Source: a phage
Sequence record: PZ347775.1
Direction: 5' to 3' (one strand)
Length of the DNA stretch: 64,000 bases
Shown one piece after another: positions 3,465 through 43,332 of the stretch (position 1 is the first letter of the stretch; each line of letters opens with the position of its first letter). The notes under the pieces are model-generated. The model was not told the origin of the DNA, made no database searches, and worked only from the letters and a program-made list of their open reading frames with translations. The translations under genes were made by a program, and so were the position numbers.

Positions 3465-3938
3465 TTATTTGAATGATTTGACGTACTGAATAGAGCCTTT
3501 GCTATTCACGAAAGCGATTTTACCATTTTTATTATACATGGTAGCAGTACGCTGATAGCCATAAGTTTGCTTACCAGATTGATAACCAACTAATGCAAAA
3601 TTATCTTCACCCATTTTATTCTGTTTAGCACGAATGCGTTCATGCCCATGCGCCATAAGAACCTTAGCATCACCAGTTGCAATGGATCTACGAGTTTTTT
3701 CATCTTCAACTGTATTAACAAAGTCGTCAAATGAATCAAATTTAGCATGGGATTTATTATACAGTTTTCCATCTACTGCATAATTGTATCCTTGTACATC
3801 CATCTCAACTTCTGTACCATCATCTAATACAGCAGTGATTTTTTGACCTTTTTTAAATTTCAAAAGATCAGTAAAAGATTCAGCAATAATTTGAGAATTA
3901 ATAGCTGCTTCAGTAATAAATTCTTGATATGTTTTCAT
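3465..3938 (-). CDS. internal protein with capsid-targeting sequence (IPII/IPIII locus)
   Basis: N-terminus MKTYQEFITEA matches the T4 internal-protein targeting leader with an (L/I)xE cleavage site. Confidence 0.75.
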   Translation of the reverse strand: MKTYQEFITEAAINSQIIAESFTDLLKFKKGQKITAVLDDGTEVEMDVQGYNYAVDGKLYNKSHAKFDSFDDFVNTVEDEKTRRSIATGDAKVLMAHGHERIRAKQNKMGEDNFALVGYQSGKQTYGYQRTATMYNKNGKIAFVNSKGSIQYVKSFK

Positions 3939-3954
3939 GTGTATCCTTTAATTT

Positions 3955-4272
3955 TTATTCTTTAGGGAAGTTTTTAGAATATGCATCATAAAGCTTATTT
4001 CCAATACGGCGGAAAACTCTAGCCGCAAAACGATTTTCTGGGTTTTTAATCATGATTTGCATCATATAAGTACCCGCGTCAGAAAGAGCTTCTTCATAGT
4101 ACCCGTTAATTTCTTTAAGAGTCCTACGTTTACCACCAGGACCATCAACAGTGATTTTCCATTTACCTGTAGAAGTGCGACTTGGCGGCTCAACTTGTTC
4201 AATCCAGATATAACCGCCTTCTACACGTTGTCCTTGGGCAGATTCTGCAATAAATTCTTTAAACGTTTTCAT
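3955..4272 (-). CDS. internal protein with capsid-targeting sequence (IPII/IPIII locus)
   Basis: N-terminus MKTFKEFIAESA; 105 aa; adjacent to lysozyme gene as in T4. Confidence 0.75.
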   Translation of the reverse strand: MKTFKEFIAESAQGQRVEGGYIWIEQVEPPSRTSTGKWKITVDGPGGKRRTLKEINGYYEEALSDAGTYMMQIMIKNPENRFAARVFRRIGNKLYDAYSKNFPKE

Positions 4273-8904: not shown

Positions 8905-9378
8905 TTATTTGATTTGTTTAGCAGACCAAATGCGGTCTTTAATAATTTTTTGGATGTCTTCAACATACTCAAGAGAGTGAACATGTGGATTATCTTTGAA
9001 ACTATAGGCACGGGCTAACTTTTGGCCTTCGGTTTTGATTACTAAAAGCTCTTTAAGGATAGCTTCATACTTAGCGATAATTCCTTTAACAATATTTTTT
9101 TCTTGTGTAGCTTTAGGATCTGCTTTAGGAGCAGGTTTACCCGAAGCCTTTGCAAAAGCAGCACCAGTAGCAACTAAACTTTTCCAGGCCATACTAACCG
9201 CATTTCCCGTAAATCCTTCGGCTTTCATATCACGAGCAAATTGGAATCGTGATTCATCGGAAGCATCTTTATAGGAATATTTACCCGCGGCAATGGCAGC
9301 TTTTGCAACAGCTTGAATTTCAGTGCTAGATGCTTCATTTAACACCGCTTCATTTAAAAATTGAGCATATGATTTCAT
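8905..9378 (-). CDS. hypothetical protein with capsid-targeting-like leader (candidate internal protein)
   Basis: N-terminus MKSYAQFLNEA resembles the MKTYQEFIxEA leader; Ala/Lys-rich; flanked by twin hairpins. Confidence 0.55.
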   Translation of the reverse strand: MKSYAQFLNEAVLNEASSTEIQAVAKAAIAAGKYSYKDASDESRFQFARDMKAEGFTGNAVSMAWKSLVATGAAFAKASGKPAPKADPKATQEKNIVKGIIAKYEAILKELLVIKTEGQKLARAYSFKDNPHVHSLEYVEDIQKIIKDRIWSAKQIK

Positions 9379-10130: not shown

Positions 10131-10206
10131 TGGTCGAGGCAGTAGGGATCGAACCTACGACCTAGGACTTAGAAGGTCCTTGCTCTTCCTTCTGAGCTAT
10201 GCCCCG
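10131..10206 (-). tRNA. tRNA-Arg (anticodon UCU)
   Basis: hand-folded cloverleaf; anticodon loop CUUCUAA, T-loop UUCGAUC, 7-bp acceptor stem, CCA encoded. Confidence 0.85.
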
Positions 10207-10210
10207 TAAT

Positions 10211-10286
10211 TGGGGTGACCGATGGGAGTCGAACCCATGACTACGAGAATCACAATCTCGAGTTCTACCAACTGAACTACGGCCAC
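10211..10286 (-). tRNA. tRNA-His (anticodon GUG)
   Basis: anticodon loop UUGUGAU, discriminator C73 typical of tRNA-His, T-loop UUCGACU, CCA encoded. Confidence 0.75.
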
Positions 10287-10400
10287 ATTAATACCTACTC
10301 CAACAATCAAGATGTCTTCACACGAAATTAAGAGAAGAGTGATCAGTTCAACCCCGATAATCGCGTCAAGTAGATATTAATGTGACAGTTGTCACAAATT

Positions 10401-10475
10401 TGGCGGACGTGATAGGATTCGAACCTATAACCAATCGCTTAACAGGCGATCGCTCTGCCATTGAGCTACACATCC
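10401..10475 (-). tRNA. tRNA-Asn (anticodon GUU)
   Basis: anticodon loop CUGUUAA, D-stem GCUC/GAGC, T-loop UUCGAAU, discriminator G, CCA encoded. Confidence 0.8.
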
Positions 10476-10479
10476 AAAT

Positions 10480-10566
10480 TGGTGGGGAGTGATGGAGTCG
10501 AACCACCCGAGTCGCAATGACAATGGATTTACAGTCCACACCGCTACCTCTACGGGATAACTCCCC
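10480..10566 (-). tRNA. tRNA-Tyr (anticodon GUA)
   Basis: 87 nt with long variable arm; anticodon loop CUGUAAA; discriminator A; perfect 7-bp acceptor stem. Confidence 0.75.
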
Positions 10567-10579
10567 TTAATTCTTAATT

Positions 10580-10654
10580 TGGTGGCCCTGGGTGGAATTG
10601 AACCACCATCTGGCGATTATGAGTCGCTTGCTTGAACCTTCCAGCTACAGGGCC
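10580..10654 (-). tRNA. tRNA with anticodon CAU (Ile2-type as in T4, or Met)
   Basis: anticodon loop CUCAUAA; T-loop UUCAAUU; perfect acceptor stem; D-stem only 3 bp. Confidence 0.7.
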
Positions 10655-10655
10655 T

Positions 10656-10731
10656 TGGTGCTGATTGACGGAATCGAACCGCCGACCTTCTCATTACAAG
10701 TGAGTTGCTCTACCTACTGAGCTAAATCAGC
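10656..10731 (-). tRNA. tRNA-Thr (anticodon UGU)
   Basis: anticodon loop CUUGUAA; D-stem GCUC/GAGC; T-loop UUCGAUU; CCA encoded. Confidence 0.85.
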
Positions 10732-10736
10732 AAAAC

Positions 10737-10826
10737 TGGCGGAGGCGATAGGATTTGAACCTATGAGTCGCCGGAGCGACTGCCGGTTTTCAAGACCGGT
10801 GCATTAAACCACTCTGCCACGCCTCC
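10737..10826 (-). tRNA. tRNA-Ser (anticodon UGA)
   Basis: 90 nt, long variable arm GUCGC/GCGAC; anticodon loop CUUGAAA; CCA encoded. Confidence 0.85.
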
Positions 10827-10828
10827 AG

Positions 10829-10902
10829 TCTCCATACAAGGATTTGAACCTTGGACCTCCTGATCCCAAATCAGGCGCTCTACCAAACTGAGCTACACGG
10901 AG
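10829..10902 (-). tRNA. tRNA-Pro (anticodon UGG)
   Basis: anticodon loop UUUGGGA; T-loop UUCAAAU; CCA not encoded, abuts tRNA-Ser (T4-style Pro-Ser dimer). Confidence 0.8.
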
Positions 10903-10912
10903 TAAATTAAAT

Positions 10913-10986
<74 letters not shown>

Positions 10987-10991
10987 AAATT

Positions 10992-11078
10992 TGGTGCGAG
11001 AAGTGGGACTCGAACCCACAAGGAAATCATTCCGCAGCATTTTAAGTGCTGTGCCTTTACCAATTTGACCATTCTCGC
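10992..11078 (-). tRNA. tRNA-Leu (anticodon UAA)
   Basis: 87 nt with long variable arm; anticodon loop CUUAAAA; T-loop UUCGAGU. Confidence 0.85.
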
Positions 11079-11079
11079 G

Positions 11080-11152
11080 CTGGGAATAAAGGACTCGAAC
11101 CTTTGCATCCTGGAATCAAAATCCAGTGCCTTACCAACTTGGCTAATTCCCA
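11080..11152 (-). tRNA. tRNA-Gln (anticodon UUG)
   Basis: anticodon loop UUUUGAU; perfect acceptor stem UGGGAAU/AUUCCCA; discriminator G; CCA not encoded. Confidence 0.8.
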
Positions 11153-11539: not shown

Positions 11540-11944
11540 TTAACCTTTATCAACAATAGTGTGAGTATGGACATTTACAATTTGCCACCAATCGAAACTA
11601 TCGCCAAATCGTTTTGATTTATTGTCTTCAATAATTTGACGTAATTCATCTTCTGTTTCAGCATACGCAATCAAATCATCATATCCACCGCAAGGATAAT
11701 AATTATCGCCTGCAAACAAAAGAAAATTTACTTTAGATGGGTCTACATAATAATGCTCTTTAGGATATTTAGTTCCTTTCCAATCAGTTACTTCAACATA
11801 ACGGTAAGAAAATCCATTTTTACTTTCAACCCAACTCCACGCTTCAAAAGGAGTATTAAAAACTCTATCAGGTATTAAATTACCTTCAAAATGAGAAGGA
11901 TTTGCATAATCCCCAGCATAAACATAATATTCGTTAATATTCAT
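11540..11944 (-). CDS. hypothetical protein
   Basis: 134 aa ORF, aromatic-rich; no recognisable motif. Confidence 0.5.
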   Translation of the reverse strand: MNINEYYVYAGDYANPSHFEGNLIPDRVFNTPFEAWSWVESKNGFSYRYVEVTDWKGTKYPKEHYYVDPSKVNFLLFAGDNYYPCGGYDDLIAYAETEDELRQIIEDNKSKRFGDSFDWWQIVNVHTHTIVDKG

Positions 11945-12130
11945 TTATTCACCTTTAGAAATTTTATCCATAACGATAGCAATTAAACCAATTAAAAATG
12001 CTACTACAAGTGAAAATACATTTTCTGCTGTAGTTAATAATCCGCATATAAATCCAACAAACATTGAAAAACTAAAAGCGGAAGCAGAAATTGCAATAGC
12101 AACATTTCGAATTAATTCACAACGTTTCAT
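11945..12130 (-). CDS. small membrane protein
   Basis: 61 aa, two hydrophobic helices. Confidence 0.45.
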   Translation of the reverse strand: MKRCELIRNVAIAISASAFSFSMFVGFICGLLTTAENVFSLVVAFLIGLIAIVMDKISKGE

Positions 12131-12156
12131 TTTATTCTCCTCAGTAGTTGATAGGG

Positions 12157-12188
12157 TAATAATATCACTACCCCATCTAAAAGTAAAC
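12157..12188 (-). promoter_or_regulatory. early promoter / stem-loop cassette copy
   Basis: minus strand GTTTAC upstream of GTGATATTATTACCC; inverted repeat GGGTA/TACCC. Confidence 0.4.
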
Positions 12189-12198
12189 GGTTTATAAA

Positions 12199-12507
12199 CT
12201 ATTTTATTCCGCGTGATGCAATTGTGTTCTGCCGTTTAACACCAGTTTGTTTAAAGTCATGATTGTCGATTTGATCGGTACGAGCAACACCGAATGATGA
12301 TTTAATCTTAGCTTTAGATCCTTTAGTTATAGAAATAAACATCTCGGAAGCCCCTTTCTTAAAGTCCGAGGCGATTACTTCAACGCCGTTCTTAGCAAGT
12401 GACCTCAGAATTGCCTCCGCGTACTCATCATCAAGACTCGCCTGAGTATTAATAACGAATGTCTTTGGTGCAGTCGCTTCATTGATAAATTCTTGATATG
12501 TTTTCAT
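12199..12507 (-). CDS. internal protein with capsid-targeting sequence (ipI locus)
   Basis: start set at MKTYQEFINEA; ORF-track start 12519 adds four residues. Confidence 0.7.
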   Translation of the reverse strand: MKTYQEFINEATAPKTFVINTQASLDDEYAEAILRSLAKNGVEVIASDFKKGASEMFISITKGSKAKIKSSFGVARTDQIDNHDFKQTGVKRQNTIASRGIK

Positions 12508-12539
12508 TTTGATTTCCATTTAGTTTTGTTTTGATAGGG

Positions 12540-12571
12540 TAATAGTATCACAACTAAACCACCGTGTAAAC
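12540..12571 (-). promoter_or_regulatory. early promoter / stem-loop cassette copy
   Basis: minus strand GTTTAC, 18 nt, TACTAT within GTGATACTATTACCCTATC. Confidence 0.4.
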
Positions 12572-12574
12572 AAT

Positions 12575-12847
12575 TTATTTTAAATAAATTGCATATTTTT
12601 TATAACCAGCCGTCTCGTGACGCAGACCTTTTTCATTAGCAAAGCGTTCAATATTATTAATTTGATTCTGATCAAGTTCTGAAATATCAAATACAAAAAA
12701 GTTTCGTTTATTTCCTAACGTTACATGATTCGTCAAATCAATGTTATAAAGATGATTTATATTATCAATCATAGTCTTAACAGATTTGCTAATTTTTACT
12801 TCTTCATTAAGAGCAGATTCAACGATAAACTCTTTGAAAGTTTTCAT
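12575..12847 (-). CDS. internal protein with capsid-targeting sequence (ipI locus)
   Basis: N-terminus MKTFKEFIVESA; 90 aa. Confidence 0.7.
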   Translation of the reverse strand: MKTFKEFIVESALNEEVKISKSVKTMIDNINHLYNIDLTNHVTLGNKRNFFVFDISELDQNQINNIERFANEKGLRHETAGYKKYAIYLK

Positions 12848-12867
12848 TTTATTTTCCTAATTAATTT

Positions 12868-12907
12868 TGATGAGGTAATAGTATCACTACCTCATCAACG
12901 TGTAAAC
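12868..12907 (-). promoter_or_regulatory. early promoter / stem-loop cassette copy
   Basis: minus strand GTTTAC; perfect 9-bp inverted repeat GATGAGGTA/TACCTCATC enclosing the -10-like GTGATACTAT. Confidence 0.4.
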
Positions 12908-12919
12908 AACTTTGTGAAA

Positions 12920-13616
<697 letters not shown>

Positions 13617-13617
<1 letters not shown>

Positions 13618-14330
13618 TATAGTACCTTTAGTGTATTTTTAATTTTAGAAAAAAGTTCTTCAAGAGAACCATCGTTTGTAATTACTAAATCGCCATCACG
13701 AATTGGCAATCCAGCTTCTGTAATATGAGTATCATTGGATTTTTGACCAGGACGAACTACATGAATTACTGTAGCACCCATCGCCCTAGCCGCATCCATT
13801 TCATGATCTTGACGAGTATCAGGAACGATATAATAATCATAACCTGAGTTAAATTTATCAAGATAATCTAAAGCAAATAATTTTACCCAATACATGCGGT
13901 CGAAGTTATTAACAATCAAATCCGTACCTAGGGCTTGCATCAGACGACGGACTGACCATTGATCTTCAATATTATTTATAACGTCAGTAATCTTGTTAAA
14001 TGCTACGAAATTAACTGCGTCATCAAAAACAAACACACCTTTAATTGGGCTTTTACTATTAAGATAGCAAAATGCTTGTTCCATAATCGTAATTACTTCT
14101 AATTTAGTCAGATTTAAATTAGTTTCACGATCATAGTCAATTCCTTCAAACTCTTTACGAGTTAAACAAGGATAGCCAGTGTTTGCTGCAAATACGCCCC
14201 ATGCATAAGCCAATGCATCTTTAATAGGACCAGCAAGTTGATATTTAACTGCAGAATAATTATTCATGATAAAATCTGCAGTAGTATCTTTTCCACTACG
14301 CTTTACACCACTTAAAAAGATTAGTTTCAT
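13617..14330 (-). CDS. 1: deoxynucleoside monophosphate kinase (gene 1)
   Basis: 237 aa, P-loop GVKRSGKDT; map position as in T4. Confidence 0.9.
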
Positions 14331-41174: not shown

Positions 41175-41175
<1 letters not shown>

Positions 41176-41429
41176 TGGAAGGTTTAATTGAAGCTATTAA
41201 ATCAAACGACCTCGTAGCCGCTCGTAAATTATTTGCTGAAGCCATGGCTGCAAGAACGATTGATTTAATTAAAGAAGAAAAAATCGCTATCGCTCGTAAT
41301 TTCTTAATTGAAGGTGAAGAACCTGAAGACGAGGATGAAGATGAAGATGATGACGAAGATAGCGATGATAAAGACGACAAAAAAGACAAAGACTCTGATG
41401 AAGATGACGAAGACGAGGATGATGAATAA
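41175..41429 (+). CDS. 67: prohead core protein gp67
   Basis: 84 aa with extreme acidic Glu/Asp tract; TAATG overlaps on both sides. Confidence 0.9.
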
Positions 41430-41854
41430 TGCTTCTGATCCCTGAAACTCATGAATTAGTTCTCGAGAATGTCGAAGCACTTATTCCTGAAGCACAGGGT
41501 CGCTTTGACGAATTGTCTTCTGCTTTAAATAAAGACGATATAAATACAATTATCGAGAATATGCTTGATGATGAAACTGATTTAGCAGTTGCATTAGCTT
41601 CTATTAATGAAAACATGCCGTTAAATGAATTCATTGTTAAGCACGTTTCAGCTCGTGGTGAAATTACACGTACTAAAGATCGCAAAACACGCGAACGTAA
41701 TGCATTTCAAACCACTGGGCTGTCTAAAGCAAAACGTAGACAAATTGCTCGCAAAGCTACCAAAACGAAGATTGCCAATCCAGCAGGTCAATCTCGTGCT
41801 CAGCGTAAGCGTAAAAAAGCTCTTAAACGCCGTAAAGCATTAGGATTAAGCTAA
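41429..41854 (+). CDS. 68: prohead core protein gp68
   Basis: 141 aa as in T4. Confidence 0.9.
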
Positions 41855-42492
41855 TGAATGAACCCCAATTATTAATTGAAACTTGGGGTCAACCTGGCGA
41901 AATTATTGATGGCGTGCCAATGCTTGAATCCCACGATGGAAAAGACCTAGGTTTAAAACCGGGTTTATACATCGAAGGAATATTCATGCAAGCAGAAGTC
42001 GTCAATAGAAATAAACGTCTTTATCCAAAACGCATATTAGAAAAAGCGGTAAAAGACTATATCAATGAGCAAGTTTTAACTAAACAAGCTCTCGGAGAAT
42101 TAAATCATCCTCCACGCGCTAATGTTGACCCGATGCAAGCCGCTATCATTATAGAAGATATGTGGTGGAAAGGAAATGACGTATACGGACGAGCTCGTGT
42201 TATTGAAGGTGACCATGGTCCTGGAGATAAATTAGCAGCTAATATTCGTGCCGGATGGATTCCAGGAGTTTCTTCTCGTGGATTAGGTTCATTGACTGAC
42301 ACAAATAAAGGTTATCGTATCGTAAACGAAGGATTCAAATTAACTGTAGGTGTTGATGCAGTATGGGGTCCAAGTGCTCCAGATGCATGGGTAACTCCTA
42401 AGGAAATTACCGAATCACAGACGGCGGAAGCCGATACAAGTGCCGATGACGCCTATATGGCTCTCGCAGAGGCCATGAAAAAAGCGTTATAA
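41854..42492 (+). CDS. 21: prohead core scaffold protein and protease gp21
   Basis: 212 aa as in T4. Confidence 0.93.
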   Translation: MNEPQLLIETWGQPGEIIDGVPMLESHDGKDLGLKPGLYIEGIFMQAEVVNRNKRLYPKRILEKAVKDYINEQVLTKQALGELNHPPRANVDPMQAAIIIEDMWWKGNDVYGRARVIEGDHGPGDKLAANIRAGWIPGVSSRGLGSLTDTNKGYRIVNEGFKLTVGVDAVWGPSAPDAWVTPKEITESQTAEADTSADDAYMALAEAMKKAL

Positions 42493-42495
42493 ATA
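42488..42495 (+). promoter_or_regulatory. late promoter (TATAAATA) for gene 22
   Basis: exact TATAAATA overlapping the gene 21 stop. Confidence 0.55.
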
Positions 42496-42522
42496 TTATT
42501 ATCTAAACAACAGGACTACAAA

Positions 42523-43332
42523 ATGCTTAAAGAACAACTGATTGCCGAAGCGCAGAAAATTGATGCTTCCGTTGCTCTTGATAGTATTTTCGAATCAGTT
42601 AATATTTCTCCGGAAGCAAAAGAAACTTTCGGCACTGTATTCGAAGCTACCGTCAAGCAGCACGCCGTTAAATTAGCTGAATCTCATATCGCTAAAATTG
42701 CTGAAAAAGCAGAAGAAGAAGTAGAAAAAAATAAAGAAGAAGCCGAAGAAAAAGCTGAGAAGAAAATCGCTGAGCAAGCTTCTAAATTCATCGACCATCT
42801 TGCGAAAGAATGGCTCGCTGAAAATAAATTAGCAGTTGATAAAGGCATCAAAGCCGAACTGTTTGAATCCATGCTTGGTGGATTAAAAGAGCTCTTTGTT
42901 GAACACAACGTTGTTGTTCCAGAAGAATCAGTTGATGTTGTGGCTGAAATGGAAGAAGAGCTGCAAGAACATAAAGAAGAATCAGCTCGTCTGTTCGAAG
43001 AACTCAATATGCGCGACGCATATATCAATTATGTGCAGCGTGAAGTGGCATTGAGCGAAAGTACTAAAGATCTGACTGAGTCTCAAAAAGAAAAAGTCTC
43101 TGCTCTGGTCGAAGGTATGGATTATTCAGATGAATTCTCAAGTAAATTGAGTGCCATCGTAGAAATGGTGAAGAAGTCTAATAAAGATGAAAGCACTATT
43201 ACTGAGGGTATAAATACTCCTGATACTGAAGCAGCCGGACTGAATTTCGTCACTGAAGCTGTAGAAGATAAAGCTGCACCTGGTGCAGAAGATATTGTAA
43301 GTGTATATGCGAAAGTCGCATCTCGTTTCTAA
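42523..43332 (+). CDS. 22: major prohead scaffolding core protein gp22
   Basis: 269 aa acidic coiled-coil. Confidence 0.93.
   Translation: MLKEQLIAEAQKIDASVALDSIFESVNISPEAKETFGTVFEATVKQHAVKLAESHIAKIAEKAEEEVEKNKEEAEEKAEKKIAEQASKFIDHLAKEWLAENKLAVDKGIKAELFESMLGGLKELFVEHNVVVPEESVDVVAEMEEELQEHKEESARLFEELNMRDAYINYVQREVALSESTKDLTESQKEKVSALVEGMDYSDEFSSKLSAIVEMVKKSNKDESTITEGINTPDTEAAGLNFVTEAVEDKAAPGAEDIVSVYAKVASRF

Follow-up and report, generated by a model that had tools for sequence, protein, structure and literature searches.

Ip7 and Ip9, two leader-bearing internal head proteins at the variable ipI locus of a T4-like phage, as candidate injected anti-defense proteins

The ipI locus of a T4-like phage (Tequatrovirus) carries two adjacent genes whose products we identify, with near certainty, as Ip7 (ORF A) and Ip9 (ORF B), which are named internal head proteins of T4-like phages. 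Both proteins are probably packed into the capsid and injected together with the DNA to disarm a host defense. The DNA analyzed is a stretch of 64,000 nucleotides from sequence record PZ347775.1, hereafter called the window, and the positions of its relevant features are collected in Table 1. The region spanning positions 12100 to 12950 is 99.8% identical to Escherichia phage ECO07P2 and 85 to 89% identical to many other T-even relatives, and approximately 50 records hold essentially the same 851-bp arrangement.

The feature itself is already known, in that the genes have been named, their arrangement is present in GenBank, and an anti-defense function is the standard hypothesis for this class of gene. 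Accordingly, when a first-pass annotation of the window presented both products as candidate injected anti-defense proteins, its proposal agreed with the literature on this protein class (PMC3012670, PMC12373910), although the two proteins had already been named Ip7 and Ip9 in the annotation of RB15, K3, and RB32. What our sequence comparisons add is modest, namely the positions of the exchange junctions, the leaderless and fused relatives of Ip9, the confinement of Ip7, and the exclusion of both proteins from the families of Ip1, Ip2, Ip3, and the Ip6-like protein.

Table 1. Positions of the features discussed, in coordinates of the 64,000-nucleotide window
Feature	Position	Strand	Details
Ip4 gene	3465..3938	-	Pfam DUF7412, 6e-96
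105-aa ORF	3955..4272	-	phrog_3966, "unknown function"
157-aa ORF	8905..9378	-	phrog_2280
tRNA cluster	10131..11152	-	11 genes
trna.4	11945..12130	-	phrog_1692; 61-aa membrane-like protein, conserved left flank
Repeat copy 1, downstream of Ip7, upstream of trna.4	12146..12193	-	promoter 12187-12159; stem-loop 12 bp, -16.1 kcal/mol, z -2.2 (marginal)
Exchanged (variable) segment relative to T4	~12169..12825		T4 matches inside are short ones to the repeated promoter element only
Ip7 gene (ORF A)	12199..12507	-	102-aa precursor; predicted mature protein 92 aa, pI 9.7
Capsid-targeting leader of Ip7, MKTYQEFINE	12478..12507	-	predicted cut after Glu10; I-N-E ends at residue 10
Upstream in-frame ATG of Ip7 (MEIK-)	12508..12519	-	no Shine-Dalgarno motif before 12519
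Repeat copy 2, between Ip9 and Ip7	12529..12576	-	promoter 12570-12542; stem-loop degenerate, fold not better than shuffles (z -0.5)
Ip9 gene (ORF B, MKTFKEFIVESA...)	12575..12847	-	90-aa precursor; predicted mature protein 80 aa, pI 8.0
Capsid-targeting leader of Ip9, MKTFKEFIVE	12818..12847	-	I-V-E ends at residue 10; further L-N-E ends at residue 15
Repeat copy 3, upstream of Ip9	12865..12912	-	promoter TTTACA-17-TACTAT with TG, 12906-12878; stem-loop 14 bp, -18.1 kcal/mol, z -3.9 (significant)
57B	12920..13375	-	PF23474 Acb1, 2.6e-60; anti-CBASS phosphodiesterase, conserved right flank
57A	13375-13617	-	
Nearest T4 late-promoter motif (TATAAATA)	13973..13980	-	inside gene 1, upstream of Ip9 and Ip7
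Prohead core genes 67, 68, 21, 22	41175..43332	+	GP67 2.4e-44; T4_CASP (gp22) 8e-90; 68 is the ORF at the gp68 position
gp21 prohead protease	41854..42492	+	PF03420 Peptidase_S77, 1.5e-111; expected remover of the leaders

The first-pass annotation had placed two leader-bearing ORFs between positions 12199 and 12847, and both are indeed found there on the minus strand, beginning with MKTYQEFINE and MKTFKEFIVE. A mechanical listing of ORFs extends ORF A to 12199-12519, reading MEIKMKTYQEF... Translation of Ip7 probably begins not at the ATG at 12519 but at the second ATG, at 12507 (MKTYQEFINEA..., 102 aa), because a weak GGAA Shine-Dalgarno-like motif precedes this codon and because ECO07P2 and RB32 annotate the 102-aa form. 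The extra in-frame ATG results from a ribosome-binding region that differs from that of the known Ip7 genes.

The two proteins fall squarely within described families. The window Ip7 is 95% identical to RB32 Ip7 and 94% identical to the T2 copy, and its match to phrog_2667 ("internal head protein"), at 3e-42, covers positions 1-101 of 101. It shares with the Ip7 proteins of RB32, T2, RB15, K3, and CC31, which belong to this same family, a length of 102 aa, a locus adjoining trna.4, and a conserved C-terminal tail. A small number of substitutions distinguish it from these proteins, and the leader begins MKTYQEF in the window and MKTFKEF in RB32 and T2. Likewise, Ip9 is 80% identical to RB32 Ip9 and 79% identical to RB15 Ip9 (UniProt Q38376), and it matches phrog_7673 (internal head protein; 9e-56) over positions 1-90 of 90. 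This protein has the same 90-aa length as its counterparts in RB32, RB15, and K3, and its gene lies directly upstream of Ip7, as in RB32. The mature part reaches up to 97% identity with WG01 and IME341-type phages. Both proteins are widespread, and tblastn searches with the mature sequences located Ip7 in 284 and Ip9 in 200 phage records. A 77-aa protein of phage OLB35 labeled "ip7 protein" (P0031) is a chimera that joins Ip7 residues 29-72 to Ip9 residues 58-90, which suggests either a deletion or rearrangement between Ip7 and Ip9 cassettes or an assembly error.

Both leaders fit the T4 capsid-targeting pattern MKT[YF].EFI.E, and the Ip7 leader is identical at nine of 10 residues to MKTYQEFIAE, the leader of T4 IPII and IPIII. 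The six-frame translation of the window contains five instances of the pattern MK[TS][YF].[EQ]F[ILV].E, against none in 200 shuffles, and thus the leader is not a chance pattern. At its end stands I-x-E, the motif cut by the T4 prohead protease (gp21 motif (L/I)-x-E), and the leader, including this cut site, is retained in every Ip7 and Ip9 relative that we aligned. Variants at leader positions 4 and 5 (Y/F and Q/K, respectively) are scattered across the Ip7 and Ip9 orthologs irrespective of family. Since gp21, gp22, gp67, and gp68 are encoded in the window, all that the leader needs is present; the portal protein gp20 and the capsid proteins gp23 and gp24 are encoded there as well. From the leader, the cleavage motif, this machinery, and expression signals like those of T4 ipI, we infer by analogy that Ip7 and Ip9 would be packaged, cleaved, and injected. 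Our literature search found no open-access proteome that reports either protein in virions.

Further ORFs that begin with a leader or a leader-like sequence are present elsewhere in the window. A 105-aa ORF directly downstream of the lysozyme gene e, in the place of T4 ipIII, has a perfect leader (MKTFKEFIAE, followed by S). It has relatives in 190 phage records, is called "hypothetical protein" in 18 of 20 cases among the matches listed, and is probably an under-annotated internal protein. A second ORF, of 157 aa, lies immediately before the tRNA cluster, and its N-terminus (MKSYAQFLNE, followed by A) is a divergent, leader-like sequence that ends in L-x-E. This protein corresponds to RB32ORF133c (97%) and bas37_0244 (99%), occurs in 512 phage records, and is never labeled an internal protein among the matches listed; it is possibly an unrecognized packaged protein. 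In addition, the window encodes an Ip4 that is 100% identical to RB32 Ip4, at the place where T4 has ipII and ipIII, and the phage is therefore without T4-type Ip1, Ip2, and Ip3 at both ip loci.

Beyond their leaders, Ip7 and Ip9 do not resemble each other, as had been noted in the first-pass annotation. The BLASTP alignment between them is limited to residues 1-11 (7 of 11 identical), and profile-profile comparison gives a 0.4% probability that the mature regions are related. We also checked whether either protein is near-identical to T4 IPI, IPII, or IPIII, and found that this resemblance, too, ends with the leader residues. Homology to the mature domain of T4 IPI* was not found for Ip7 or Ip9, given that the leader residues alone align and that sequence comparison yields no relative of solved structure. 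Furthermore, searches of both proteins against Pfam, PADLOC, and the sequences of solved structures (PDB) returned nothing above threshold.

Structure prediction with AlphaFold2 gave a confident model for Ip9 (pLDDT 82.7, pTM 0.70), with a helix-strand-strand-helix-strand-strand core at residues 21-88, and a moderate one for Ip7 (pLDDT 67.7), with a strand-helix-strand-strand-helix core at residues 15-71. The models show generic alpha/beta folds only, and therefore the function of the two proteins is not revealed by structure. When the Ip9 model was compared with viral models using Foldseek, the single significant match was a 535-aa viral protein without a name. The Ip7 tail (residues 83-102) is modeled with low confidence but is conserved in sequence, and its RQNTI motif is retained in a relative that is 55% identical. 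With mature Ip7 as the query, an exhaustive HMMER search of 1.84 billion representative proteins recovered three clusters only, all of which consist of leader-bearing internal-protein sequences or fragments. Therefore, Ip7 is confined to T4-like phages, and outside relatives offer no hint of its role.

The distribution of Ip9 is broader. Its mature part is approximately 50% identical to a free-standing, leaderless 72-aa protein (L005:2507-2725; phrog_7673 7e-27) of phages with genomes of 43-45 kb, whose records are labeled Kagunavirus or Kayfunavirus and in which the gene lies within a block of small early-region genes. The motifs GNKRNFF and RFAN..GLR.E..GYKK are retained at this level of overall identity. 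More distantly (~32% identity, phrog_7673 2e-8), the domain makes up the last 60-75 residues of a 755-aa protein of a Kuttervirus (L006:473-2740). The N-terminus of that protein (MAIPSFLNFLEE) is itself leader-like and has an L-x-E site. Judged from these alignments, Ip9 is composed of a leader, a short linker, and a domain that elsewhere occurs in leaderless form. A tentative extension, which we think may well be wrong, is that T4-like phages recruit soluble early cytoplasmic proteins of other phages as injected effectors, through recombination behind the 10-codon leader, and that Ip9 would be a visible example of such capture. This reading draws on the leaderless 72-aa protein, on the presence of the domain as a C-terminal module in Kuttervirus-type proteins of 535-755 aa, and on a cassette junction in the window that falls within leader codons. 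If this is true, then the target of Ip9 would be a defense common to the hosts of very different phages rather than one specific for glucosyl-hydroxymethylcytosine.

The first-pass annotation had assigned the pair to the hypervariable ipI locus of T4, and the flanking genes confirm this placement. In the direction of transcription, the minus-strand order is gene 1 (dNMP kinase), 57A, 57B, Ip9, Ip7, trna.4, trna.3, trna.2, and a cluster of 11 tRNA genes; the succession of trna.4, ip genes, 57B, 57A, and gene 1 is the same in T4 and RB32. The number and identity of the genes between 57B and trna.4 vary, with one in T4 (ipI), three in RB32 (Ip5, Ip9, and Ip7), and two each in T2 (an Ip5-sized gene and Ip7), Bas37 (Ip5 and an Ip6-like gene), and the window (Ip9 and Ip7). 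Thus, the gene that adjoins 57B is Ip5 in RB32 but Ip9 in the window, which is without Ip5. The label "RNA ligase" persists for 57B in many GenBank records. The tRNA cluster comprises the T4 set of eight genes plus His, Asn, and Tyr, with a CAT-anticodon tRNA (called Met here) in the place of T4 tRNA-Ile, and it is without the segB homing endonuclease gene that interrupts the T4 and RB32 clusters.

Repeated elements surround each gene of the pair. The RB32 record notes Ip7 and Ip9 as being like the RB15 and K3 versions and "flanked by 43 bp direct repeat," and in the window three copies of a 48-nt direct repeat frame the two genes, with one copy before Ip9, one after Ip7, and one separating them. 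Every copy has an early promoter of the T4 type, (G)TTTAC-17 nt-TACTAT preceded by TG, and the stem-loops of the two outer copies cover the -10 box. A simple terminator scan found no terminator, since the T-run is missing. We classify these repeats, by their sequence, as elements of the promoter-early stem-loop (PeSL) kind. In RB49 and phi1, elements of this type have been credited with mediating modular shuffling (PMC2839356). The window shares with those cassettes a repeated intergenic early promoter and stem-loop that flank a nonessential gene, and differences between phages map to these units here too. The window differs from them in that one crossover falls within leader codons instead of the promoter element and in that the middle copy is without a stem-loop.

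The exchange junctions can be placed by comparing the flanks. The left flank (11916-12168) takes in trna.4 with one half of the trna.4 promoter element and has 98% identity to T4. The right flank (12826-13398) has 97% identity to T4 and RB32 and comprises 57B together with the promoter element and the initial 21-22 nt of the ip gene that adjoins 57B. These identities thus delimit the exchanged segment between them. By this alignment, the right junction lies inside the leader codons and the left junction lies inside the promoter/stem-loop element. Consistent with this position, the promoter, the ribosome-binding site, and the first seven codons of Ip9 are those of ipI in T4 and of Ip5 in RB32, being identical to the latter, and the region upstream of Ip9, with repeat copy 3, is approximately 97% identical to that upstream of T4 ipI. 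In its spacer, the middle promoter (12508-12574, minus strand) agrees with the promoters of T4 trna.4 and RB32 Ip9 and differs from that of RB32 Ip7, which shows that reshuffling between cassettes has involved the promoter elements as well. We also looked for a late-promoter motif directly upstream of Ip7 or Ip9 and found none. T4 has TATAAATA at the same place inside gene 1 as the window (L003 6006-6013). Because T4 ipI has the same layout, we do not count the missing adjacent late promoter against packaging.

Internal proteins with established targets provide the context for assigning a function. T4 Ip1, Ip2, and Ip3 all have separate targets among the GmrSD type IV restriction enzymes, and none of the three protects against an enzyme blocked by another (Silas et al. 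2025, PMC12373910). Ip7 and Ip9 share with T4 IPI (Ip1), which is injected and inhibits the E. coli CT596 GmrSD enzyme, the same locus, flanking genes, and upstream promoter/stem-loop, and all of these proteins are leader-bearing, small, and basic. Phage Bas37 has two genes at the ipI locus, of which the leader-bearing bas37_0260 is reported to be required specifically to counter the McrBC system of E. coli K-12 (preprint 10.1101/2025.11.20.689424). This 77-aa protein belongs to a family annotated as ip6 in phage VR20, and its neighbor in Bas37 is Ip5. It is like Ip7 and Ip9 in being small and leader-bearing, in its two-gene arrangement, and in its locus. These four proteins (Ip1, Ip2, Ip3, and the Ip6-like protein) are the internal proteins with established targets, all of them inhibitors of type IV restriction; published targets cover these four and none is reported for Ip7 or Ip9.

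We considered whether Ip7 or Ip9 corresponds to the McrBC inhibitor of Bas37 and rejected this assignment, given a BLASTP E value of 0.24 for the mature regions and hhalign probabilities of 0.07% (Ip7) and 0.10% (Ip9). A BLASTP match between Ip7 and bas37_0260 (E value 4e-5) is borne by the leaders and is gone once these are removed. The experiment envisaged in the first-pass annotation, a test against type IV restriction, is already published in part. When ip4-10 were screened with a set of GmrSD variants, no effect was reproducible, and apparent interactions such as that of ip7 with CLS_011 did not recur (PMC12373910, Supplementary Fig. 9), and further ip genes of T4-like phages gave no new interactions with newly active GmrSD groups (PMC12373910). 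Moreover, T2 is restricted by the GmrSD enzymes of ECOR21 and ECOR17 (PMC12373910) yet carries Ip7, and therefore Ip7 does not neutralize those enzymes.

The mechanism that we favor as a whole, although by our estimate it is only slightly better than an even bet, is that Ip7 and Ip9 are packaged by means of their leaders, cut by gp21, and injected, and that each blocks one host enzyme that acts against modified DNA. The two genes would constitute promoter-flanked cassettes at the variable ipI locus. The first 10 residues would direct each precursor into the prohead scaffolding core, and gp21 would then cut after Glu10 (I-x-E), freeing a basic protein of ~10 kDa that is kept in the head with the DNA. 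The mature proteins would enter the cell with this DNA and could act before any phage gene is expressed, each binding and blocking a single, specific host enzyme directed against glucosyl-hydroxymethylcytosine DNA as it comes in. The likeliest target would be a type IV restriction enzyme like GmrSD or McrBC, with a modification-specific DNA glycosylase less likely.

By analogy, several observations suggest this anti-defense role and this class of target. First, an injected anti-defense function is favored because all internal proteins of known function inhibit type IV restriction. Second, the neighboring gene 57B encodes the anti-CBASS enzyme Acb1, which argues in the same direction. Third, in unrelated phages the Ip9 domain stands alone as a small protein of the early region, as would suit a soluble effector rather than a part of the capsid. 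Finally, diversifying selection fits the replacement of cassettes at the ipI locus, where T4, RB32, T2, Bas37, and the window all differ.

Three other explanations deserve consideration. Ip7 and Ip9 could be injected anti-defense proteins whose targets lie outside type IV restriction, for example a glycosylase that acts on glucosylated cytosine. The negative GmrSD screen is compatible with this explanation, glycosylases of this kind are a recognized second threat to T-even DNA (PMC13216743), and the leaderless relatives of Ip9 reside in phages of another type. Nevertheless, no internal protein has yet been tied to such a target, whereas four of the four known cases are type IV restriction inhibitors, and we regard this explanation as unlikely, if worth keeping in view.

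Somewhat harder to credit is a purely physical role, in which the packaged proteins have no specific host target and serve to neutralize DNA charge or to aid condensation or ejection. The predicted mature proteins are basic (Table 1), and in T4 heads the lysines of internal proteins contact DNA phosphates, with ~1000 copies embedded in the DNA (PMC3012670). The negative screen against GmrSD variants is in keeping with this role as well. However, charge neutralization leaves unexplained both the swapping of cassettes with unrelated folds at one locus and the strong conservation of the Ip9 motifs and of RQNTI in Ip7, and specific targets exist for all four internal proteins of known function.

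That the two are ordinary early cytoplasmic accessory proteins, with a leader that is a cassette relic and with injection irrelevant, is very improbable: although a separate sigma-70-type early promoter (GTTTAC-17-TACTAT with TG) precedes each gene and TATAAATA is missing immediately upstream of both, and although the Ip9 domain works without a leader in the 43-45 kb phages, the leader and its I-x-E are kept across the aligned relatives, and T4 ipI has the same promoter arrangement and late motif in gene 1, yet its product, IPI, is packaged and injected (PMC3012670).

If Ip7 and Ip9 are indeed injected blockers of enzymes that attack modified DNA, they join a distinctive group, since internal proteins are among the few phage counter-defenses that are delivered ready-made together with the DNA. 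The window brings no new gene to this group, but it offers a clean two-cassette arrangement in which the exchange junctions can be seen. The targets of Ip7 and Ip9, if found, would fill gaps in the map of T-even phages versus the enzymes that attack modified DNA, and would aid the prediction of host range for therapeutic T4-like phages.
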